Positions 39,531-62,095 of a stretch of DNA of 64,000 bases are shown here, one piece after another. The translations under genes were made by a program, and so were the position numbers. Origin of the DNA: Candidatus Binatia bacterium (GTDB lineage: Bacteria; Desulfobacterota; Binatia; HRBIN30); assembly GCA_038245295.1 (NCBI GenBank), contig JBBRSP010000002.1:1-64000 (forward strand), in the 5' to 3' direction. The notes under the pieces were generated by a model, which was given only the letters and a program-made list of their open reading frames with translations, did no database searches and was not told the origin of the DNA. Position 1 is the stretch's first letter. The number at the start of each line of letters is the position of its first letter.

Positions 39531-40974
39531 ATGAGTGGCGTCGGCCAACCCGAACGCGTCACCCAGAACCGGGTCATCGCGCTGTTCCGCGCCGAGCTTG
39601 GCTACCGCTATCTCGGCGACTGGAGCGAGCGCGACGACAACAGCAACATCGAAGAAGAGTTGCTGGCCCCCTTCCTGGCGACGAAAGGTCGATGCCTGGT
39701 TCGACGCCAAGACAAAGGGCCTGAACGAGTGGCAGAAGGCCGCCCTGCGCGAGCAGTGGGGCACGATGCAGAAGGTGCTCAGCTCACGCTCGCGCATGGA
39801 GCGTGTGGTCGAGGACATCATCTTCGACTTCAGCGTCAAGCCACGCCTGTCGAACGAGCCCGGCACGGCCATCCTGGTGGCTTCGAGCATCTACGAGGCG
39901 TGCAAATACTTCGAGCTGCTGCAGAAGACGCCGTTCAAGGGCAAGTGCGCCATCATCACCTCGTATAACCCGCAGACGCAGGACATCACGCTGGAGGACA
40001 CAGGGGCCAACAGCGAGACCGACAAGCAGTTCATCTTCAACACCTACACGACCCTGCTCGAACGTGTCGCGGCGCAACCGGGGATGACCAATCGACGCGG
40101 CGTTGGAGGCGTTGGTGCACCTCTGCGAGTGGGTCGTACCGCCGCGCGGCGAGCTTGAACACATCCACTACTTCTGCGGCAACACCGAGATCGCCACAGA
40201 TCTGGCCGAGCGCGAGCCACAGCGTGTCGCTTTGTATAAGGCCACCGCCGGTCTGGTGCGCGCTTATGCCAACATTGCGGATGAGCTGGATGCGGCAGGC
40301 TATGCGACCGCCGACATCAAGCGCATCAAGGAGGCACTCGATCAATACCTGAAGCTGCGCGAGGTCATTCGCAAGGCGAGTGGCGAAACCATCGACCTGA
40401 AGGCCTACGAAGCCGATCTGCGGCACTTGATCGATACGTACATCGAAGCCGCCGAGCCGAAGAAGATCTCGCCGTTCGACGATATGCCGCTGCTCGAGCT
40501 GATCGTGAAGACCGGCATTGCCGAAGCGATCAACCGCCAGCTGGGCGGTTTGAGAGGCAACAAGGAAGCGATTGCCGAGACCATCGCCAACAACGTGCGC
40601 AGCAAGATCATCAAGGATCATCTCAACGACCCGGCCTTCTACGACAAGATGTCGGCGTTGCTCGACGAGATCATCGCCGACCTGCGCGCCAAGCGGATCG
40701 AGTACGCGGAGTATTTGAAACGGATCGCCGAGCTAGCGAAGAACGTTCAAGCCGGACAGGCCGATGACACACCGGAGCCGCTCAAGAAGAGCCCCGGCCT
40801 CAGGGCCATTTTCAATCTGCTCAAGGTGGATGCGACCCTCGACGGAAGCGGCGCAATCGTCGACCCGTCGGCGACCTATCCTGGATTCACGGCCGATCCG
40901 ATCTTGGAGCGCGCCTTGAAGATCGATGCATCCGTGAAGCAGTCACGGCCCGACGGCTGGCGCGGCCATACTGA
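39531..40974 (+). pseudogene. hsdR: Type I restriction subunit R remnant with internal deletions and frameshifts
   Basis: N-terminus [28 protein letters not shown] jumps at ~39687 to the [25 protein letters not shown] segment, then at ~40091 to the DLKAYEADLRHLIDTYI..PAFYDKMSALLDE C-terminal segment, each in a different frame. Confidence 0.85.
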
Positions 40975-41687
40975 TGGCGACGCAGATCCAGCTTGGTGAC
41001 GTCGTGCTCGATGTCACCAAGAAGGCCATCAAGAATCTTCACCTCAGCGTCCATCCGCCGAACGGCAAAGTGCGGATCTCGGCGCCGTTGCGCATGAACA
41101 ACGACACGATCCGCGTATTTGCCATCTCAAAGCTTGCGTGGATCAAACGGCAGCAACACGAGATGCGGCAGCAGGAACGTGAAACACCGCGTGAGTATCT
41201 CGATCGCGAGAGCCACTACGTTTGGGGCAAGCGTTACCTCCTGCAGGTTGTGGAGAAGGATGAGCCGCCCGGCGTGCGTCGAAACCACAGCGCCCTGGTG
41301 CTGAGTGTTCGTCCCGGATCGACTCGAGTCAGGAAGCAGGCCGTGCTGGAGGAATGGTGCCGCGAGCAGCTCAAGGCCGCCGCCCTACCACTGATCGCCA
41401 AGTGGGAGCCGTTGCTTGGCGTGACCGTGCGCCGCTTGTTCGTGCAGCGGATGAAGACCAGGTGGGGCAGTTGCAATCGCGACGGGAATATCCGGCTCAA
41501 CACCGAGCTGGCCAAGAAGCCGCGTCAGTGTCTCGAGTACATCGTCGTACACGAGATGGTTCATCTGCTCGAGCCTACCCACAACCGGCGCTTTGTTGGT
41601 CTGATGGATCGGTTCATGCCGCGGTGGAAGCATCGGCGGGACGTGCTCAACCGCTTACCGTTGCGGTACGAGAGGTGGACGTTTTGA
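40974..41687 (+). CDS. YgjP/DUF45 (M48/SprT-like) metallohydrolase, usual hsdR neighbour
   Basis: MKTRWGSCN, IRLNTELAKKP, YIVVHEMVHL, HNRRF. Confidence 0.9.
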   Translation: MATQIQLGDVVLDVTKKAIKNLHLSVHPPNGKVRISAPLRMNNDTIRVFAISKLAWIKRQQHEMRQQERETPREYLDRESHYVWGKRYLLQVVEKDEPPGVRRNHSALVLSVRPGSTRVRKQAVLEEWCREQLKAAALPLIAKWEPLLGVTVRRLFVQRMKTRWGSCNRDGNIRLNTELAKKPRQCLEYIVVHEMVHLLEPTHNRRFVGLMDRFMPRWKHRRDVLNRLPLRYERWTF

Positions 41688-48342: not shown

Positions 48343-49110
48343 ATGACACGACGTTCACTGTTCACCATCGCCCTACTGGGCATCTTGGGAACCGGCCGCC
48401 TGGCCAACGCACAGCAGTGTCCGGGAGACCTGAACGGTGACAACGAGGTGACCATCGACGAGGTCATCGTCGCTATCAACAGCGCGCTGAACGGCTGCTC
48501 GGCGCCGGCCGCGACGCCGACACCATCGCCGACGGTTACGCTGCGTCCGTCGACAACGCGCACGGCGACGGTGACACGAACACCGACCGCAACACGCACC
48601 GCGACGACCGCCGTCACCCCAACACCGACGACGCGTTTCCGCGACAACGGCAACGGCACGATCACCGATACCAGCAACGGCCTGGTGTGGCAGAAGCAAA
48701 GCGACGACGGCGGCCTGCTCGACAAGGACGTGCGCTACGGCTGGACCGCCAGCGGCAGCACGGCACCCATCGGCACCATATTCAGCACCTTGCTGCCGGC
48801 GCTGAACGCGAGTCGCTTCGGCGGCTACAACGACTGGCGCTTACCGAGCGTCGACGAGCTACAGACCCTGGTGTCACGTAGCGGCGTTGGTCCGGGGGCG
48901 CCGTTGGTTCCACCCGAGTTCAACAAAAACTGCCTGCCCGGTTGCAGCGTCACGCAGTGCAGCTGCACCACGGCGCTCAACTATTGGACCGCGACGCCGA
49001 ACCCGGCCTACGACCAGCAGGCCTGGTACGTGTTGTTCAATACCGGCAACAGCGGTGTCGGGTTCAAGACGCTCGAGTTCTATGCCCGCGCGGTGCGCGG
49101 CGGCGGTTGA
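48343..49110 (+). CDS. Secreted dockerin-like + DUF1566 (Lcl C-terminal) protein
   Basis: CPGDLNGDNEVTIDE, PT linker, RFRDNGNGTITDTSNGLVWQK, GYNDWRLPSVDEL, ARAVR. Confidence 0.88.
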   Translation: MTRRSLFTIALLGILGTGRLANAQQCPGDLNGDNEVTIDEVIVAINSALNGCSAPAATPTPSPTVTLRPSTTRTATVTRTPTATRTATTAVTPTPTTRFRDNGNGTITDTSNGLVWQKQSDDGGLLDKDVRYGWTASGSTAPIGTIFSTLLPALNASRFGGYNDWRLPSVDELQTLVSRSGVGPGAPLVPPEFNKNCLPGCSVTQCSCTTALNYWTATPNPAYDQQAWYVLFNTGNSGVGFKTLEFYARAVRGGG

Positions 49111-49472: not shown

Positions 49473-50894
49473 ATGGCCGAGTGTTTCAGATGCAACACCG
49501 CGGGGGAAAGCTCGCGGACCTTCCCGTATTGGAGGCAGCATCGGTCTCTCTGGCTCACGGTGGCTGTCGCGGTCGCGATAGTGTGCATCCGTGTCGACCA
49601 AGGAAATGCCTTGCCGACCTTCGCGCGGCAGACTGGTCTCGCTTGCTCCGCCTGCCACAACAACTTTCCGGAGCTCACGGCCATGGGCCGGACGTTCAAG
49701 GCACACGGGTATACGACGCTCGCGGTGCAGGACGCCCTGGAAGAGAAGGGCACCGACAAGCAGGCTCCTCTCTACATCAACCGCACATTCCCGCTGTCGG
49801 TAATGTTCCAGACCTCGTTTACGCGGACCAACGACAAGCAGCCTTCGACGCAGAACAACGACGTCGAGTTTCCGCAGCAACTAAGCATCTTCCTCGCCGG
49901 CGAGATCACCCCTCACATCGGGGCCTTTCTGCAAGCAACCTACAACGGCCAAGACGACAAATTCAGCCTCGACAACACCGACTTCCGCTTCTCTGACGAA
50001 ACGAAAGTCGCCGACCGCGAACTGCTCTACGGAGTCACACTCAACAACAACCCGACCGTGGAGGACCTGTGGCACACCACGGCGGCGTGGCGCTGGCCGT
50101 TCGCCAGCGCCGACTCGGCCCCGACGCCCGATGCGACGGCGCTTGTCGACGGCGTGCTGGCTCAGCAGGTCGCCGGCCTCGGCCTGTACGGCATGTGGGA
50201 CAAGCACCTCTACGCCGATGTTAGTCTTTACCGCTCGGCGCATATCGGATCGACGCAACCGCCGGGAGCCGACTCGACCTCGACCATCTCCGACGTTTCA
50301 CCCTATTGGCGTTTGGCGTGGCAGCAGAATTTTGGGCCGAACTATCTCGAAGTCGGGACCTTCGGCATGTTCTCGGCGCTCTATCCCACCGGCACTTCCG
50401 GCTCGACCGACAAGTACACCGATTTTGCGTTCGACACTCAATATGAACGGCCGCTGGGTTCGGATTCCATGTCGGCCCACGCGACCTACATCTATGAAAA
50501 CCAACAACTCGACGCGACGCACGGCGGTGGTGGCTCGGACAATCTAAATGACAAACTGCACACCTTTCGCGTGGATGGGGTTTACCATCTTCAATCACGC
50601 TTCACCTTCTCGCTTGGCGGTTTCCTCACCAGGGGCACCAACGATAAGCTGCTGCACGCTCCACCGTCTACCGCCCCCGGTGACCCCGCCGCGGTTACCG
50701 GTAGTATCAACGGTAGTCCCGACAACGATGGTGTGGTCGCCGAGATCGCCTACTACCCGTGGCAGAACGTGCGGTTCTCGACCCAGTACGTCGCGTACAC
50801 AGAGTTCAACGGTCGGGCAAACAACTACAACGGCACCGGTCGCAATGCCGTGGACAACAACACGCTCTACGTGCTGGCATGGCTGAACTACTAG
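49473..50894 (+). CDS. cyc2: Cyc2-like fused monoheme cytochrome c-outer membrane porin
   Basis: After signal peptide: LPTFARQTGLACSACH..FPELTAMGRTFK.HGY (Cyc2 N-terminal signature), NNNPTVEDLW, beta-barrel body ending in aromatic LAWLNY; RBS AAGGAG. Confidence 0.8.
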   Translation: MAECFRCNTAGESSRTFPYWRQHRSLWLTVAVAVAIVCIRVDQGNALPTFARQTGLACSACHNNFPELTAMGRTFKAHGYTTLAVQDALEEKGTDKQAPLYINRTFPLSVMFQTSFTRTNDKQPSTQNNDVEFPQQLSIFLAGEITPHIGAFLQATYNGQDDKFSLDNTDFRFSDETKVADRELLYGVTLNNNPTVEDLWHTTAAWRWPFASADSAPTPDATALVDGVLAQQVAGLGLYGMWDKHLYADVSLYRSAHIGSTQPPGADSTSTISDVSPYWRLAWQQNFGPNYLEVGTFGMFSALYPTGTSGSTDKYTDFAFDTQYERPLGSDSMSAHATYIYENQQLDATHGGGGSDNLNDKLHTFRVDGVYHLQSRFTFSLGGFLTRGTNDKLLHAPPSTAPGDPAAVTGSINGSPDNDGVVAEIAYYPWQNVRFSTQYVAYTEFNGRANNYNGTGRNAVDNNTLYVLAWLNY

Positions 50895-50917
50895 GCGAGC
50901 CAAGGAATCGAACCCTG

Positions 50918-51439
50918 GTGTCACGCACCAGGGGCCTGAGCGCTTCGTCGGCATCTCCTGCGGCACGATGGCGCGCCAAGACGCGACGGTACGCCGTCGG
51001 AATCGTTCTCTTGACGCCGCTCGTGTGCGTCCCCGTCGCGCATGCGCAAGGGGATGACGCCGATAGCCTGCGCCAGGAAGTCGGCGAGCTGAAGCGCACC
51101 GTCGAGCGCCTCGACGCCAAATTGCAACACCTCGAACAGCAGCCAACGCCTTCGCCACAAGGGCCGGCGGCGGAGAGCATCGGCGCGGCAACATCGGCGA
51201 GCGCAACCGCTACCCCGACGACAGAGGCGAGCGCACGACAGCGCTGGCGGCAAATCGAATACGGCATGAGCACAAGCGACATCAGCGCACTCCTTGGTCC
51301 GCCGCAACGAATCATGGAGATGAGTCCAAAACTCATCTGGTATTATTCGTATCCTGAAAGCGGCAACGCCTCCGTGGTCTTCACCGACGCGGGTGGCGTC
51401 ATCGATTGGCAAGCACCAGCGACCAACGCCTTTTGGTGA
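50918..51439 (+). CDS. Exported coiled-coil protein with BamE/SmpA-like C-terminal domain (start uncertain)
   Basis: VAHAQ signal cleavage, coiled coil, WRQIEYGMSTSDISALLGPP...WYY. Confidence 0.6.
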   Translation: MSRTRGLSASSASPAARWRAKTRRYAVGIVLLTPLVCVPVAHAQGDDADSLRQEVGELKRTVERLDAKLQHLEQQPTPSPQGPAAESIGAATSASATATPTTEASARQRWRQIEYGMSTSDISALLGPPQRIMEMSPKLIWYYSYPESGNASVVFTDAGGVIDWQAPATNAFW

Positions 51440-51568
51440 GACCCGGAAGGCATCACATGACGGGCGATCGATGAAAACTTTGACTTGATGGGAATTGCGG
51501 GCGGACTGTCCGTCGACGCCGCTGCCGACCAGACGGTTTCGCGCCGCAAGCGAACAAAGGAGACTGCG

Positions 51569-51943
51569 ATGCGAAGGCGACGTTTGTTGGGATACGCAAT
51601 CTTGTCGGTCGGCTATCTTGTCCTTCTCTGTCCGCGGCTGGTGACAGCGGACGATGCTGCTCTCGCCAAGGCGCGCGAGAACTACCAGAGCTATTGCCAG
51701 AAGTGTCACGGCGAGAACGGCAAGGGCGACGGCCCGGGTGCCGCCATGCTCAACCCGAAGCCGCGCGATTACACCGATTGTAAGGCCATGCAGGGCAAGA
51801 AGGACGACGAGCTCTTCAAGGTCATCAAGGAGGGCGGCGACTCGATCGGCTTGTCGGCCGACATGCAGCCGTTCGGCGGCAATCTTTCCGATGACGAGAT
51901 CCACGAAATGGTGAAGTTCGTGCGCGGCTTCTGCAAGTCTTGA
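51569..51943 (+). CDS. Periplasmic monoheme cytochrome c
   Basis: Signal peptide, CQKCHGENGKGDGP, PKPRD, distal Met MQPF; RBS AAGGAG. Confidence 0.92.
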   Translation: MRRRRLLGYAILSVGYLVLLCPRLVTADDAALAKARENYQSYCQKCHGENGKGDGPGAAMLNPKPRDYTDCKAMQGKKDDELFKVIKEGGDSIGLSADMQPFGGNLSDDEIHEMVKFVRGFCKS

Positions 51944-51962
51944 CCATGGGAGCAACGGGCCG

Positions 51963-53897
51963 GTGAGTCGCAGCGCAATCGACAAAGTGCGGGCGGTCAT
52001 TCGCCCGCTGACATGGTTCCGCGACAACGTTCCGTGTCTCGCGGCTTGCCCGGTGAAGACCGACGCCGGCCGCTATGTGCAGCTCATCAGCTCAGGCCAA
52101 TACGACGAAGCGTACGCGGTAGCCCGATCACCAAATCCAATCGCGTCGATTTGCGGTCGCACCTGTGGCGCACCGTGCGAGGACGCCTGCCGCCGCGGCA
52201 AGATCGATTCGCCCGTCGCCATCCGGCCGCTGAAGCGCTTCGTCACCGAACGCTACGGTCCCGAATCCTTCTCACCGCTGACAGCGGAGGCACTGACAAC
52301 CCTTGCCACCGCCGGCAAGCAGAGCACCACTGCGGGGCACGCAGAGAACCTGAGCCTCCATGCGCGCGGCAAGGTCGCGGTCGTCGGTGCCGGCCCCTCC
52401 GGTCTCGCCTGTGCCCATGATCTCGCGGTGATGGGCTATCGCGTCACCGTATTCGAAGCGATGGAGCACGGCGGCGGCATGATGCGTTACGGCATCCCGG
52501 AGTACCGCTTACCGCGCGAGGTAATCGACCGGCAGGTCGATGAGATCCGCGGCCTCGGTGTCGAGTTCGTCTTTGGCCGCAGCCTCGATGCTACCTTCGG
52601 CCTGCGTGAAATCCGCGCCGCTGGCTACGCCGCGATCTTTCTCGGGCTCGGCGCCGGCCGTGGCCGCGACCTTGCCATCGAGGGGGGCGAACTCGACGGC
52701 GTGGTCAAGGCTATCGACTTCTTACTCAACGTGAATCGTGGCTATCGCGTCGACGTCGGCCGCCGCGTCATCGTCGTAGGCGGCGGTCTGGTGGCGCTGG
52801 ATGCGGCGCGCACCGCCGTGCGCGTCTTGTTGAGTGGCGCCGAACGCGCCGCCGAAGAGCTCGGCCGCGTCGTGGGCACGGAAGTTCGCGTCGCCCTCGA
52901 CGCTGCACGCGAGGCGCGGCGTCGGGGTGCTCTCGAGGTGTCGGTCGTCAGTCTCGAACAGCTCGACGAGATGCCGGCAACGCGCTCCGTCCAGGGCCGC
53001 GAAGAAATGGAAGTCACGCGTGACGAAGGAATCGATTTCGAGCCCGGGTGGGGGCCGAAGCGCATCGTCGGCGAGGCTGGGCGTGCGACGGGCATCGAGC
53101 TGATTCGTTGCGCGCGCGTCTTCGACGAGCAGGGGCGCTTCAATCCAAGCTTTGTCGCCGGAAGCGAAAGGATCCTCTCTGCCGATACGATCCTGCTCGC
53201 GGTTGGTCAGCGCTCCGATTACAGCTTCCTGCGGCCGGAGGACGGCGTCGAGTTGGCCCCATCGGGGCTGATCAAGGTTGATCCGAAGACGCTGCAGACG
53301 ACAGCACCCGGAATCTTTGCCGGGGGCGACGGTGCTTTCCCCCCTGGCATGCTCATCACGGCCGCCGAACACGGCAAGCGGGCAGCGGCATCCATCCATG
53401 CTCATCTGAGCGGCGCGACGGCGCCGACGACGATGCGGGTGATTGCCGAGGAGCAGGCACTGGCGACCTACCGGATGCCGGAGCACTACGAACAGATCGC
53501 GCGCCATGTGCCGATGGTACCGGTCAATCGACGCACCGGCATCACCGAAGTCGAAGTCTGTTACACGGAATCCGAGGCCAAGGAGCAAGCCGACCGCTGC
53601 CTCTCGTGCCACGTAGATCCGATTTACAACCGCGATCTCTGCGTCTTGTGCGCGCGCTGCGCCGACATCTGCCCGGAGAACTGCATCAGCTTCGTTCCGG
53701 TCGAGCGCCTGAGCTTGGGTGCCGCGGATGAGATGACCGTCGCGGCCCTGGCACCGGCAGACGGCACGTTCACGGCGTATCTGTACGCCGAAGACCGCTG
53801 CATCCGTTGCGGGCTGTGCGCCATCCGCTGTCCGACAGGCGCCATCACTATGGAGCGATTTCGTTTTGAGGAGGTGTGCGATGAGTCCATCGCCTGA
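51963..53897 (+). CDS. FAD/NAD(P)-dependent oxidoreductase (GltD/NfnB-like) with C-terminal 2x[4Fe-4S] ferredoxin domain
   Basis: PCLAACP, CGRTCGAPCEDAC, GAGPSG, YGIPEYRLP, VGGGLVALD, RCLSC, CVLCARCADICP, CIRCGLCAIRCP. Confidence 0.92.
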   Translation: MSRSAIDKVRAVIRPLTWFRDNVPCLAACPVKTDAGRYVQLISSGQYDEAYAVARSPNPIASICGRTCGAPCEDACRRGKIDSPVAIRPLKRFVTERYGPESFSPLTAEALTTLATAGKQSTTAGHAENLSLHARGKVAVVGAGPSGLACAHDLAVMGYRVTVFEAMEHGGGMMRYGIPEYRLPREVIDRQVDEIRGLGVEFVFGRSLDATFGLREIRAAGYAAIFLGLGAGRGRDLAIEGGELDGVVKAIDFLLNVNRGYRVDVGRRVIVVGGGLVALDAARTAVRVLLSGAERAAEELGRVVGTEVRVALDAAREARRRGALEVSVVSLEQLDEMPATRSVQGREEMEVTRDEGIDFEPGWGPKRIVGEAGRATGIELIRCARVFDEQGRFNPSFVAGSERILSADTILLAVGQRSDYSFLRPEDGVELAPSGLIKVDPKTLQTTAPGIFAGGDGAFPPGMLITAAEHGKRAAASIHAHLSGATAPTTMRVIAEEQALATYRMPEHYEQIARHVPMVPVNRRTGITEVEVCYTESEAKEQADRCLSCHVDPIYNRDLCVLCARCADICPENCISFVPVERLSLGAADEMTVAALAPADGTFTAYLYAEDRCIRCGLCAIRCPTGAITMERFRFEEVCDESIA

Positions 53898-54345
53898 ACC
53901 CGAACGTCGGCGTTTCTTGCAGTGGATTGGCCAGTGGTCGGTGGTGGCGACCGTGCTCACCCAGTTTGCCGGCGTCGTCCGCGCCTTTGTGCCGCGCGTC
54001 CTCTACGAGCCGTCGAAGAAATTCAAGGTTGGCAAGCCGGGCGAGTACCCCGAGGGCGTGACGTTCGTCCCGATGCATCGCTTGTTCGTGATCCGCGAGC
54101 GCAATCAGTTCCACGTCATCTCGGCAACCTGCACGCACCTCGGGTGCTGCGTGGAATGGAAGGCGAAGACCGACGAGTTCGATTGCCCGTGTCACGGCAG
54201 CAAATTCAAAGCGGACGGGACGGCGTTTGCGGGACCCGCGCCGCGATCCCTTTCGTTGCATCCGTTGAGTGTCTCCGGCGACGGCTTCCTGGTCGTGGAT
54301 TCGGGGAAATCGGTCCCGGCAAACTACCGCTTCGCGGTGGCCTGA
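53881..54345 (+). CDS. Rieske [2Fe-2S] subunit of a Rieske/cytochrome b complex
   Basis: Tat motif ERRRFL, TM anchor, CTHLGC, CPCHGS, GPAPRSL. Confidence 0.93.
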   Translation: MSPSPEPERRRFLQWIGQWSVVATVLTQFAGVVRAFVPRVLYEPSKKFKVGKPGEYPEGVTFVPMHRLFVIRERNQFHVISATCTHLGCCVEWKAKTDEFDCPCHGSKFKADGTAFAGPAPRSLSLHPLSVSGDGFLVVDSGKSVPANYRFAVA

Positions 54346-54378
54346 GGGCAGGCGTATCGGCGCGGGGAATGGGAGAGC

Positions 54379-55689
54379 ATGACCATGCGAGCGAAACTGA
54401 ACCGGTTATGGCGCCGGGCAACGTGGTCGTGGAGCCCGGCGAGTGAACGCGAAGCAAGCACGGCGATCGTCGAGAATCTCTGGCTGCACTGGTTCCCCGC
54501 CAAAGTAGCGGAGGAGAGTTTTTCTTGGAGCTACAGTCTGTGGCTCGGAACCATTTCGGCCTTTCTGTTCCTCATCCTGATCGTCACCGGTATCCTGCTG
54601 ATGTTCTTCTATGTTCCGTCGACGCAACTGGCGTACTGGAGCATTAAGGATATCCATTACGTCGTCGGCTTCGGTTGGCTGCTACGCAACCAACACCGCT
54701 GGGCGGCGCACCTCATGGTGCTGGCGGTCTTCCTGCACATGTTGCGGGTCTTCTTCACCGGCGCCTACCGGGCGCAACGGTCGACCAACTGGCTGGTTGG
54801 CATCGTGTTGTTGCTGGTGACCTTGTTCCTCTCCTTCACGGGCTATCTGCTGCCTTGGGATCAGTTGGCGTTCTGGGCGGTCACGGTCGGTACCAACATC
54901 GCAAAGGAAGCGCCGGTCGTCGGATCGGCGCTGCAGTTCGTCTTGTTGGGTGGGACGGAAATTGGCCAGAGCACGTTGGTCCGGTTCTACGTCCTCCACG
55001 TCGTCGTGCTGCCGGCGGCAGCACTCGTGCTCTTCGCGTACCACATGTGGCGCGTGCGCCGCGACGGCGGCATGGCCGTGACCGATCCGGCGGCGGCCGT
55101 TGTCGCCACGCCGCAGGATGCGGCGTCGGTTGGCGGTAAAACCTATTCGCTGTTCGGCGTGACCCCGGGTACCAGTCTCGAGACACGCGCCGCCGGCCCG
55201 ATTCCTGACGGCACCGGAGTTTTTTCCGCGCCGCACATGCTGCGGCGATTGATGCTGGTGTTTCTCGCCGTGTTCACGGTCACCATCGTCCTGAGTCTGA
55301 TCTCCGGCGCACCGCTCGAGGAACCGGCCAACGCCACGTTGACGCCAAATCCGGCGAAGGCGCCGTGGTACTTCTTGTGGCTGCAGGAGCTCGTCGCCAT
55401 CACGACGTTGCGCCTCGGTGGCTTCACCCTCAGTGGTGGACTGATCGGCGGCATCCTGGTTCCGGGTGTTTTGCTCATGGCGGGCGTGCTCTGGCCCTTT
55501 TTCGATCGTAGCCCTCTGCATACGGTGGGCCGATGGTTCCCGCGCGAGCGCCGTCTCCAGAATGGCGTGCTCTGTGTCATCGCCCTCATCATGCTCGTCC
55601 TGGTGCTGATCGGCATGCTCATGCGCGGTCCGTACTGGCAGCTTTACTGGCCCTGGCAGGCATGGCCGGAAATGCCGCGTCGGCTCTAG
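54379..55689 (+). CDS. Cytochrome b with fused subunit IV
   Basis: HRWAAH..LH, TGYLLPWDQ.AFWA, RFYVLH..YH heme ligands, TPNPAKAPWYF Qo motif. Confidence 0.93.
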   Translation: MTMRAKLNRLWRRATWSWSPASEREASTAIVENLWLHWFPAKVAEESFSWSYSLWLGTISAFLFLILIVTGILLMFFYVPSTQLAYWSIKDIHYVVGFGWLLRNQHRWAAHLMVLAVFLHMLRVFFTGAYRAQRSTNWLVGIVLLLVTLFLSFTGYLLPWDQLAFWAVTVGTNIAKEAPVVGSALQFVLLGGTEIGQSTLVRFYVLHVVVLPAAALVLFAYHMWRVRRDGGMAVTDPAAAVVATPQDAASVGGKTYSLFGVTPGTSLETRAAGPIPDGTGVFSAPHMLRRLMLVFLAVFTVTIVLSLISGAPLEEPANATLTPNPAKAPWYFLWLQELVAITTLRLGGFTLSGGLIGGILVPGVLLMAGVLWPFFDRSPLHTVGRWFPRERRLQNGVLCVIALIMLVLVLIGMLMRGPYWQLYWPWQAWPEMPRRL

Positions 55690-55696
55690 GTGTAAA

Positions 55697-56974
55697 ATGA
55701 GCAGCTCGAGATTCAGCTGGAACCGCGATTTCTGGCCACTGCTGGTGGCCTCGATCGCTTCGTTCGTCGTCGTCATGGTCGTTGCGTACCGCGAGTACAC
55801 ACCGGAATGGCGGCACCACACGCAAGTGTTGCGCAGCTACCTGACCGGCCGCGGCGCCTACGATGCAGCCGCCGCGGTACCCGACGGCGTGCAGCAAATC
55901 TGGCTACCGAAGCTTGATCGCGTCGATCGCTGCATGAGCTGTCACGTCAACTATGACGGCTCGATTTCTCCGCTCGCCGATCTGCCGCCGCTCTACCGGC
56001 CACATCCCGACCTGCCGTACATGGCCAAGCATCCCTTCCCCACCTTCGGCTGCACAGCCTGTCACGGCGGGCAGGGCTACGCACTGGATGAGGCCGGGGC
56101 GCACGGCCTGGAGGAGCACTGGGATGATCCGCTGCTCACCACCAAGTTGGCAAGCGGGTCCGGGCTGACGCGCGCCCAGCTCATGGAGATCAAGTGCAAT
56201 ACCTGCCATCGCGCCGATGACAGAACGGCTGGCACCGATCTCATCAACATGGCCAAGGAAATCGTCGACAAGAAGCATTGCACCTCGTGTCACGGCTTAC
56301 AGGGCCGAGGCGGATTGGCAGCGTCGGATCTCACGTACGACGGCGACCTCAACCCCGAGCTGCTCGACTTCTCCACGGTCGAGGGACCGAGGACGCTGCT
56401 CAACTGGCAGGTCCAGCACTTCAAGAGTCCGCAGCAGGTGACGCCGCACAGCGGTATGCCGAACTACAAGCTGAACGACGACCAGGCACGCGCCCTGGCG
56501 CTGTTGATGCTGAGCTGGCAGCGCATCAGCTTTCCGCCTGAATATGTGCCGGCGGCGCGGCAACGGCCCCCGGCGGTCCTGCCTGTGGTCCGCGAAGTCC
56601 CGTATCCGCCGGCTGCCTCGTCACCGCTCGCCGAACAGGGACGCTACGTATTCAGCAACCGCGGCTGCAACACTTGCCATCGTGTCGGTGGTGGAAAGCT
56701 CATCGGCCCGGATCTCGCAGGTGTGGCGCAACGCCGTAATGACCGCTGGCTAACGACCTGGTTGAAAGATCCGGCCGCCGTGGTGGCAAAGGACGCCGAG
56801 CTGCAAGTCTGGTCGCGCGAGTTTGGCGACATCATCATGCCGAACCAGAACCTCGACGATAAGGAGATCGAGGCGCTGATTGCGTACATGAAGGAGTTCG
56901 CCAGCGGCGTCAGCGAGCTGCTCGGAACGGCGTCACCCACGCCTCCGCCCACGCCATCGTCTCCGGCTAGTTGA
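55697..56974 (+). CDS. Membrane-anchored pentaheme cytochrome c
   Basis: N-terminal TM; CMSCH, CTACH, CNTCH, CTSCH, CNTCH. Confidence 0.92.
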   Translation: MSSSRFSWNRDFWPLLVASIASFVVVMVVAYREYTPEWRHHTQVLRSYLTGRGAYDAAAAVPDGVQQIWLPKLDRVDRCMSCHVNYDGSISPLADLPPLYRPHPDLPYMAKHPFPTFGCTACHGGQGYALDEAGAHGLEEHWDDPLLTTKLASGSGLTRAQLMEIKCNTCHRADDRTAGTDLINMAKEIVDKKHCTSCHGLQGRGGLAASDLTYDGDLNPELLDFSTVEGPRTLLNWQVQHFKSPQQVTPHSGMPNYKLNDDQARALALLMLSWQRISFPPEYVPAARQRPPAVLPVVREVPYPPAASSPLAEQGRYVFSNRGCNTCHRVGGGKLIGPDLAGVAQRRNDRWLTTWLKDPAAVVAKDAELQVWSREFGDIIMPNQNLDDKEIEALIAYMKEFASGVSELLGTASPTPPPTPSSPAS

Positions 56975-57055: not shown

Positions 57056-57198
57056 CTCCCTCTCCCAGCTCGAGCCGAGTGGCGACAGCTGGGAGAGGGC
57101 CGGGGTGAGGGTTCATAAGCGAATCCGGATGCCATCGGCGGGCCCTCACCCCGACCCTCTCCCACCTCATAAGGTTGCGCTCGAAGTGGGAGAGGGAG
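57056..57198. repeat. REP doublet (CCCTCACCCCG.CCCTCTCCC family)
   Basis: CTCCCTCTCCC..GGGAGAGGGCCGGGGTGAGGG versus CCCTCACCCCGACCCTCTCCC..GGGAGAGGGAG. Confidence 0.8.
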
Positions 57199-57504
57199 CG
57201 CTTGTCTTTCGTCTCCCGTGGGCGACCACCGGCCATCATCACTTCGCGGGGGGAAGGCCTCTTGGGCAGTGGCAACTTCAGCGCCCTATGCAAAGACTTT
57301 CGGCGATAGTAGATCAGCGTGTGGTTGACCGCGGTGACGACTTGGGGCCGTGCGATTCCGGAACCGAAGGGGCGACTCCACTACGCTTGAGCGAAGCCGG
57401 GCCCGCATAGGGCAATTCCTAATCGTGGGAAGGGGCGCGGTGGTCTTCCCAAACTCTGGCTCCGGTCGGCGGCGAGTTCCGACATCCGTGCACGTCATGG
57501 ACGG

Positions 57505-57533: not shown

Positions 57534-61096
<3,563 letters not shown>

Positions 61097-61100
<4 letters not shown>

Positions 61101-62095
61101 CAATGGATCTGACTACCAAATACATGGGCCTCGAACTGCGCCATCCTTTCGTGAGTGGGGCTTCGCCCTTAGTCGACGACATGGCAATGGTTCGCCGGCT
61201 GGAGGATGCCGGCGCCGCCGCGGTTGTCATGCACTCGTTATTCGAAGAGCAGATCCTGGCGGAACAACAGGCGACGATTGAGGCGCTCGAAGCCAGTGAG
61301 GACAGCTTCTCGGAAGCACGCTCGTTCCTTCCGGACTCACAGCACTTTCGTATCGGCCCTGACCAGTACCTAGAGCAGATCCGTCGATTGAAGGATGCGC
61401 TTTCCGTCCCGGTCATCGCGTCGTTGAACGGGGTGACGCCGAGCGGATGGTTGCGCCATGCGAAGTTGTGCGAGAGCGCTGGCGCCGACGGCCTCGAACT
61501 CAACGTCTACTACGTTGGCAACCAACGCACGGACACGGCGGAGATCGTCGAGACGCGGCTGCTGCGGATGGTTGGCGTTTTGAAAGAGGAGCTGCACATC
61601 CCGGTCGCGGTGAAGCTATCGCCGTTCTTCACTAATTTCATCAACGTCGCCGATGCTCTCGACGCGCAGGGCGCCGATGCGTTGGTGGTGTTCAACCGCT
61701 TCTATCAGCCCGACATCGATATCGACGGGCTCGAGGTCGTTCCGAGCCTGCGGCTCTCCGATTCGTCCGAGTTGCTGCTGCGCCTACGCTGGCTGGCGGC
61801 GCTCCACGGTCGGGTCCGCGCCTCGCTGGCCTGCACCGGCGGCGTACACACGGCGCAAGACGCAATCAAAGCCCTCATGGCCGGCGCCGACAGTGTGCAG
61901 ATGGTCTCGGCATTATTGTCGAACGGCCCGGAGCATCTGCAGCGCATTCGGCGTGAAGTGGAAGAGTGGCTCGAGCAGCACGAATACTCGTCGCTCAGCC
62001 AACTACGCGGCAGCATGAGTCTCGACCGCTGCCCTGATCCGGCGGCCTTCGAGCGCGCGAACTACTTGAGAGTGTTGCAGTCCTGGCGCGGTTAA
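61097..62095 (+). CDS. Dihydroorotate dehydrogenase-like FMN protein (common nifJ partner)
   Basis: MDLTTKYMGLELRHPF..GASPL, SLFEEQI, ELNVY, VKLSPFF, FNRFYQPDID, TGGVH; ATGA overlap with nifJ. Confidence 0.9.

Follow-up and report, generated by a model that had tools for sequence, protein, structure and literature searches.

The 64,000-nucleotide window analysed here (positions 1 to 64,000 of the forward strand of contig JBBRSP010000002.1, assembly GCA_038245295.1) comes from a Candidatus Binatia bacterium whose genome of 6.63 Mb is 96.6% complete. Window positions 49473-56974 are occupied by seven intact open reading frames, all on the plus strand, in which a cytochrome-porin of the Cyc2 family stands beside a Rieske/cytochrome b (bc) complex and a flavoprotein:

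49473..50894, plus strand: Cyc2-family fused monoheme cytochrome c-porin, 473 amino acids (motif, CxxCH and barrel model)
50918..51439, plus strand: exported accessory protein, 173 amino acids with the start codon inferred (signal peptide, coiled coil, BamE-like domain)
51569..51943, plus strand: periplasmic monoheme cytochrome c, 124 amino acids (PF13442/PF00034 over cut-off)
51963..53897, plus strand: cytoplasmic GltD/PRK12771-like FAD/NAD(H) flavoprotein, 644 amino acids, four predicted iron-sulfur (Fe-S) clusters
53881..54345, plus strand: Rieske [2Fe-2S] protein with a twin-arginine (Tat) leader, 154 amino acids (PDB matches)
54379..55689, plus strand: fused cytochrome b6-type protein and subunit IV, 436 amino acids, seven hydrophobic segments
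55697..56974, plus strand: membrane-anchored pentaheme cytochrome c, 425 amino acids (five CxxCH, one N-terminal hydrophobic segment)

The intergenic gaps measure 23, 129, 19, -17 (an overlap), 33 and 7 nt, most starts are preceded by a purine-rich sequence resembling a ribosome-binding site, and the GC content of the cluster resembles that of the remainder of the window. A preliminary description of this DNA had reported seven tightly packed, co-oriented genes and assigned an identity to each. The packing is borne out by the intact frames, the small gaps and the same gene order in relatives (below), and the identities by motifs, family matches, the barrel model and heme motif counts (one CxxCH each in Cyc2 and the monoheme cytochrome c, five in the multiheme cytochrome). 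A promoter and terminator scan was uninformative (1 site and 8 sites, compared with 1.2 and 6.2 for shuffled sequence).

The first gene carries the motif AxPxFARQT, its single CxxCH at residue 58 and PxL downstream of the heme motif, matching the Cyc2 signature (AXPXFAR[Q/K][T/Y] upstream, PXL downstream) as defined in the available text of PMC8406198. In the structural model an N-terminal helix (residues 20-39), in keeping with a signal peptide, precedes the motif, and the remainder forms a barrel of 16 long strands (predicted TM score 0.81, from an 84-row alignment); Cyc2 proteins are expected to exceed 365 residues and to contain a fused beta-barrel of about 16 strands. Foldseek matches of the model are porins, including OprP/OprO, and neither a Pfam or NCBIfam family nor a solved structure was matched by sequence or profile. 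A motif search of the 6.6-Mb host genome returned this gene as the sole match. The nearest named homologues among the matches listed belong to Candidatus Binatia or Deltaproteobacteria, and full-length homologues at 29-40% identity occur in Burkholderiaceae, in Acidiphilium and on a plasmid of Acidithiobacillus, which hints at a place on the cluster 2 side of Cyc2. Plasmid pACRY03 of Acidiphilium cryptum JF-5 holds such a homologue, annotated as "hypothetical", at 32% identity and beside a c-type cytochrome (L215:5890-8186); a plasmid of At. ferrooxidans holds a match with an identical score.

The accessory protein matches BamE at E=0.012 in the host and at E values between 1e-5 and 2e-4 in five orthologues, of which two lie above cut-off; its gene stays behind cyc2 even at loci without bc genes (L033, L054, L068). 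The monoheme cytochrome c, a likely electron shuttle, is 62-71% identical in seven relatives, and the pentaheme cytochrome 76-79%.

The flavoprotein combines GltD-like Fer4_20 and Pyr_redox_2 domains with two Fer4 motifs and has no hydrophobic segments. Of 119 homologues, 111 or more retain each of the fifteen cysteines of its clusters, and every one has Lys91. We infer that its CxxCH is an Fe-S ligand pair rather than a heme site; two ligands of the distal cluster are predicted from a C-terminal CxxC. Where NADP users have YRR (PMC7596348, in the part of that paper available to us), the host protein has SLE, which makes NAD(H) the likely substrate, and YRR is not among the commonest variants at this site in the 119 homologues. 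Of the "NAD(P)-flavin-FeS subunit" initially described, the FAD and Fe-S part stands, and the NADP part gives way to an NAD-type motif. We rejected an identity as a bifurcating NfnAB, given that Lys91 replaces the Glu ligand of Nfn, SLE takes the place of YRR and a gene for the Nfn small subunit is absent from the locus. The replaced Glu and the absent small subunit likewise leave no evident Nfn-type bifurcation and no evident link to ferredoxin, the latter having been suggested earlier.

The best PDB matches of the Rieske protein are two anammox proteins, Kuste4569 (9rk4, E 6e-26) and Kustd1480 (9rk3, E 2e-22), with reported measured potentials of +303 mV and +335 mV, respectively. The host protein has the Ser of the hydrogen bond, together with Phe for Tyr, the same Ser/Phe pair as Kustd1480. 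Cytochrome b retains the four heme histidines and adds an N-terminal His37; Trp55 stands at the position of the heme cN Cys, APWY replaces PEWY, and Leu291 stands at the position of a Glu on the side of the quinone site QN. Reading residue equivalences off the alignment, we take Arg to occupy the place of the bc1 His, and Leu that of the acidic residue of QN. His37 is present in all 107 flavoprotein-linked cytochromes b, none of which has the cN Cys, and is missing from all ten PEWY-type or unrelated cytochromes b without a flavoprotein.

Among 60 relatives compared, eight carry a close cyc2. Seven of these, from five genera and two families, share the complete seven-gene order between unrelated flanks (in one case split over two contigs); the eighth has only cyc2 and the accessory gene. 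A scan of GTDB genomes with a Cyc2 alignment found at least 80 loci, mostly in Acidobacteriota, of which 78 were counted after two probable duplicates had been dropped; the counts that follow are among the matches listed. The flavoprotein and cytochrome b lie on the cyc2 strand at 43 of the 78 loci, with cyc2 at the start in 30 and at the end in 13, and 42 of the 43 also have a cupredoxin gene. A further 15 loci have cytochrome b without the flavoprotein, and 20 lack cytochrome b, some of them being short contigs. The reverse scan, with a flavoprotein alignment against metagenomes, also gave at least 80 loci. Among the matches listed there, Rieske or cytochrome b genes are present at 46 of the 47 loci having at least 1.5 kb downstream, and the 19 loci with full flanks comprise 14 with cyc2 (13 by script, one by eye), three with nosZ and two with neither.

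To sample without selecting on either gene, 150 genomes were drawn evenly from the class of one Acidobacteriaceae locus, which we take to be Terriglobia. The flavoprotein occurs in 32 of these genomes and a Cyc2-like match in 58; 27 of the 32 have cyc2 on the same strand within 10 kb (four of these loci were inspected directly and the others read from coordinates).

The Cyc2 slot is filled by two lineages that share about 25% identity over some 150 N-terminal residues and align mainly there. At one locus, L035:10415-11957 of the relative G033, an unfused porin and a 93-residue monoheme cytochrome fill the slot, and the flavoprotein and multiheme genes are frameshifted. A second architecture places cyc2 beside a Rieske protein and a PEWY-type cytochrome b fused to c-type heme domains, with the flavoprotein absent (L058, L061, L062, L065-L067, L072, L075, L099, L104; L042, L043, L051).

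Counts across related genomes are not independent. Despite this, the linkage is beyond chance, because it persists through reordering and replacement of the parts, and the synteny of cyc2 with the flavoprotein-Rieske-cytochrome b module, which the preliminary description had marked for checking, was found across two phyla (Binatia-like relatives and Acidobacteriota). We are highly confident that the seven-gene cluster is a real, widespread and conserved system. This system is probably a physical electron chain. Alternatively, the parts could be co-regulated and not wired together, as members of a shared low-oxygen regulon or with Cyc2 serving in metal handling or sensing, and the bc complex would then discharge to other periplasmic reductases or oxidases. 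This would account for cyc2 without the module (genome G007 and the 20 loci without cytochrome b) and for the module without cyc2 (G012, G055, G113, G168). The Geobacter porin ExtI, encoded in a Rieske/cytochrome b operon, offers a parallel in being dispensable for Fe(III) citrate reduction (PMC5877670, available part). Co-regulation alone nevertheless sits poorly with a linkage that has outlasted rearranged gene order, the exchange of one Cyc2 lineage for another and the replacement of cytochrome c by cupredoxin as carrier, and we regard it as quite improbable.

Where cyc2 is missing, the commonest identified partner of the module is the nitrous oxide reductase NosZ. In the class sample, nosZ lies beside the module in three of the five flavoprotein genomes without an adjacent cyc2, and none of 119 labelled rows has cyc2 and nosZ together at one locus. 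The NosZ-linked flavoproteins are sister to the host flavoprotein (a quick IQ-TREE run with 34 of these 119 rows gave SH-aLRT 99), and the module-linked NosZ, at the one locus tested, is of Sec-type clade II, over cut-off. Since NosZ is an electron sink, its place as the commonest alternative partner suggests that the context of the module points outward.

At several such loci (L038, L136, L141, L145, L170, L218-L220 and others) the flavoprotein-Rieske-cytochrome b plus subunit IV-pentaheme module immediately precedes clade II nosZ and the accessory nos genes. From this arrangement, the nosZ-linked module is possibly an NAD-coupled bc complex dedicated to N2O respiration; our literature search found no paper matching it. 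The host itself has a second flavoprotein-Rieske-cytochrome b-multiheme cluster (L213, G000 C13:126666-139940; also L039), joined to a Tat-exported type II dimethyl sulfoxide (DMSO) reductase-family enzyme of 1153 amino acids and an AlgE-like porin.

Considering direction, outward flow overall, whether bifurcating or NADH-fed, appears reasonably probable. Its more specific form, to which we give slightly less than even weight, is a chain that would run from the quinol pool through Cyc2 to an acceptor outside the cell, for instance Fe(III), and would bifurcate the quinol to NAD+. Quinol, probably menaquinol, would be oxidised at the site QP. One electron would pass through the Rieske protein, with a potential of about +300 mV by likeness to Kustd1480, to the pentaheme cytochrome, the periplasmic cytochrome c, Cyc2 and an acceptor outside the cell; in Acidobacteriota, the place of the periplasmic cytochrome c would be taken by a cupredoxin together with an Ig-fused cytochrome c. 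The second electron would move from heme bP to bN and to a further heme that is predicted at the dimer axis with His37 as ligand, and from this axis heme through the four Fe-S clusters and FAD to NAD+, bypassing a degenerate QN site. The His37 pattern and the degenerate QN of the host subfamily favour this route from the axis heme to NAD+, which has been proposed for anammox, over NADH feeding QN. Complex I would re-oxidise the NADH, and the charge moved per electron would therefore exceed that of a plain Q-cycle.

In a Q-cycle, both branches run away from the quinone at QP or both run towards it. Because they share direction, NAD+ reduction would be tied to export towards Cyc2, and Fe(II) uptake would be tied to NADH oxidation. 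The preliminary description had left two directions open. An uphill path from Fe(II) to NAD(P) by way of one complex is not supported, being at odds with this geometry. In the host, RuBisCO, acetyl-CoA synthase and ATP-citrate lyase, the markers searched for the Calvin-Benson-Bassham, Wood-Ljungdahl and ATP-citrate lyase routes, were not found over threshold. RuBisCO at E<=1e-100 was found in none of the 150 class-sample genomes, and so in none of the 27 carriers. Outward extracellular electron transfer remains a good reading given the alternation with NosZ, the autotrophy markers not found and the Q-cycle geometry. In addition, PMC8790237 proposes Cyc2 as a terminal Fe(III) reductase in At. 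ferrooxidans and reports Fe(III) reduction by Acidobacterium capsulatum and Acidicapsa.

A number of observations weigh against an outward, bifurcating chain. By bookkeeping with textbook potentials and a membrane potential of 150 mV, bifurcation is favourable only above about +0.33 V and would consume energy with an acceptor of +0.3 V or less; Fe(III) in acidic or chelated form would thus suffice as acceptor and neutral Fe(III) oxides would not. The QN-side Glu is retained in many Acidobacteriota subunit IV sequences, and His37 is retained at two flavoprotein-less loci (L079, L087). The energetics and the persistent Glu would suit a flow that is outward and NADH-fed. Electrons from NADH would then enter the b hemes and QN by way of the flavoprotein, giving a self-contained NADH:extracellular-acceptor oxidoreductase with a low yield of protons per electron. 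Such an enzyme would work with the low-potential neutral Fe(III) oxides, the hosts, which appear to be heterotrophs, would need an outlet for NADH, and the NosZ swap fits equally well. However, the host cytochrome b has no heme cN, and the Arg and Leu that we presume to stand at the bc1 His and QN acidic positions also speak against NADH feeding QN. Further, the host has complex I genes, and the mode is judged wasteful for the anammox homologues in the part of PMC12954380 available. We consider NADH feeding unlikely.

Other counterpoints concern direction itself. Every Cyc2 protein tested for function oxidises Fe(II), according to the portions available of PMC8406198 and PMC7029218. One genome with a cyc2 locus, G061, also has a strong RuBisCO match. 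At L227 (G061 C10:99400-103400, Acidobacteriaceae) this RuBisCO large subunit is followed by what we take to be rbcS-, cbbX- and prk-like genes. The third partner of the module, the type II DMSO reductase-family enzyme (G000 C13 and G032), scores below all cut-offs; it may presumably be of the nitrite oxidoreductase kind and could then feed electrons in. Cyc2 might accordingly work inward: Fe(II) would be oxidised and the cytochrome c or cupredoxin pool would drain to terminal oxidases, in a mixotrophy parallel to the bc complex, or the complex would run in reverse, with Fe(II) and NADH each giving one electron to quinone. Besides the validated Cyc2 proteins and the RuBisCO of G061, this would agree with the six heme-copper family genes of the host, including aa3- and cbb3-like ones, and with the combination of Cyc2, cupredoxin and cytochrome c, which recalls the Acidithiobacillus rus operon. 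Against it, no oxidase family was recognised by eye among the 45 commonest neighbour families listed, the slot is otherwise occupied by NosZ, and reverse operation would, in a textbook Q-cycle, cost both NADH and proton-motive force. Inward flow through Cyc2 thus also seems to us unlikely.

Two properties of the host complicate outward flow as well. Its quinone pathway looks partial: menB lies over cut-off and a menA-like gene below it, and menD, mqnA and mqnD were not found in the genome. An mqnC match was rejected as evidence of the futalosine pathway, being below cut-off and in what we take to be an F420-synthesis-like context. In addition, the host has no need of Cyc2 for export, because it encodes three other multiheme clusters (G000 C32:6900-22300, C19:5000-17800 and C5:214700-221100). 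With up to 18 hemes and with porin-like and NHL-like genes, these resemble porin-cytochrome conduits. By labels assigned by eye from context, the host also has NO-reductase-like genes, two clusters resembling alternative complex III, complex I genes and a NiFe hydrogenase.

Rieske/cytochrome b complexes that include an NAD(P) oxidoreductase subunit have been described before (PMC12954380, PMC5600118). As far as the accessible text of PMC12954380 describes them, the anammox complexes Kuste4569-4574 and Kustd1480-1485 resemble the host complex in their GltD-like flavoprotein with four Fe-S clusters and Lys for Cys at the FAD-proximal cluster (ligands inferred), in having the nearest solved Rieske proteins and a membrane-anchored multiheme cytochrome, and in an extra N-terminal His, His37 being likened to Kuste4571 His43 by position alone. 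They differ in that the host lacks the heme cN (CxGG) Cys and has Leu291 at the Glu ligand position, and the anammox split of a four-helix cytochrome b and a five-helix subunit IV is replaced by one chain with a fused three-helix subunit IV. The host complex also has an NAD-type motif and, as partner, Cyc2 with a soluble carrier rather than an octaheme cytochrome like hydroxylamine oxidoreductase, and its hosts look heterotrophic. We suggest that the complex works like the anammox kind; we do not class it there, because heme cN and the split architecture are absent. By description it would fit cytochrome b subfamily G/G' of Dibrova et al., which has oxidoreductase subunits (PMC5600118, available part).

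The porin end has known relatives too. The host protein shares with Cyc2 of Acidithiobacillus, Mariprofundus and Leptospirillum the fused monoheme cytochrome-porin, the family motif and an adjoining periplasmic cytochrome c or cupredoxin. In the rus operon and its kin, cyc2 is linked to an aa3 oxidase and bc1 lies in a separate, flavoprotein-less pet operon (PMC10654088, as far as available), whereas the host cyc2 is linked to a bc module, with no oxidase recognised next to it. The Geobacter cluster extHIJKLMNOPQS (PMC5877670) likewise unites an outer-membrane porin, multiheme cytochromes, a Rieske protein and cytochrome b in one operon, and ExtP/ExtQ are the best NCBIfam matches at our locus, below cut-off. 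In the sections available, the ext cluster differs in its heme-less porin, absent flavoprotein and selenite/tellurite reduction phenotype. DsrL, NfnB and GltD (PMC7596348, part available) share with the flavoprotein an FAD/NAD(P) core, clusters near the N-terminus and, at the C-terminus, a 2[4Fe-4S] ferredoxin domain; unlike DsrL/NfnB, the host locus has neither a dsr nor an Nfn small-subunit gene, and its flavoprotein has Lys for Glu and distal ligands from the C-terminal CxxC.

Both halves, Cyc2 and an NAD-linked Rieske/cytochrome b complex, are known, and what appears to be new is their combination. The preliminary description had considered this combination undescribed, and our search, which covered few subscription papers, agrees: no paper on cyc2 with an NAD-flavoprotein bc complex was found in the literature searched, though operon figures elsewhere could contain the cluster with its cyc2 unrecognised. 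Neither cyc2 nor Rieske is mentioned in the available text of PMC8262859 (Binatota) and PMC9599518 (peat Acidobacteria), and a term search gave no match in the part of PMC12442345 available.

Downstream, a gap of 559 nt containing a genomic repeat (window 57060-57220, with about 130 BLAST hits across the host genome) parts the cluster from a pyruvate:ferredoxin oxidoreductase gene, which is followed by a dihydroorotate dehydrogenase-like gene (window 57534-62095). We rejected these two genes as parts of the cluster on account of the gap with its repeat and their absence from the loci of the seven relatives; their adjacency to cyc2 is rare, at one of 80 genome loci and two of 80 metagenome loci among the matches listed. 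Pyruvate:ferredoxin oxidoreductase-like genes also lie close to cyc2 at L086, L154 and L203. Upstream, window 48343-49110 encodes an exported Lcl-domain protein with an N-terminal dockerin-like repeat common to many host genes, and window 39535-41687 holds what we take to be the C-terminus of a fragmented type I restriction subunit, followed by a presumed M48/YgjP-like gene.

Looking across the entire analysis, we propose, with distinct reserve, an as yet undescribed respiratory module widespread in soil and peat Acidobacteriota and in Binatia, in which a quinol-bifurcating, NADH-generating bc complex would have in Cyc2 a terminal reductase outlet that is interchangeable with N2O reductase. 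The gene cyc2 is a common marker of iron oxidation, yet most homologues occur in organisms not known as iron oxidisers, and in 27 of the 150 genomes sampled from a dominant soil class its context suggests export. The locus offers a possible path for the Fe(III) reduction that has been reported from Acidobacteria, as well as a route for testing, outside anammox bacteria, the unproven proposal of a bc complex that makes NAD(P)H. The module beside clade II nosZ bears on energy conservation in N2O respiration. If the proposal is true, the module would be the route of Fe(III) reduction that is still missing for Acidobacteriota, the mechanism proposed for anammox would extend to heterotrophs, and many cyc2 genes counted as iron-oxidation markers would denote iron reducers.

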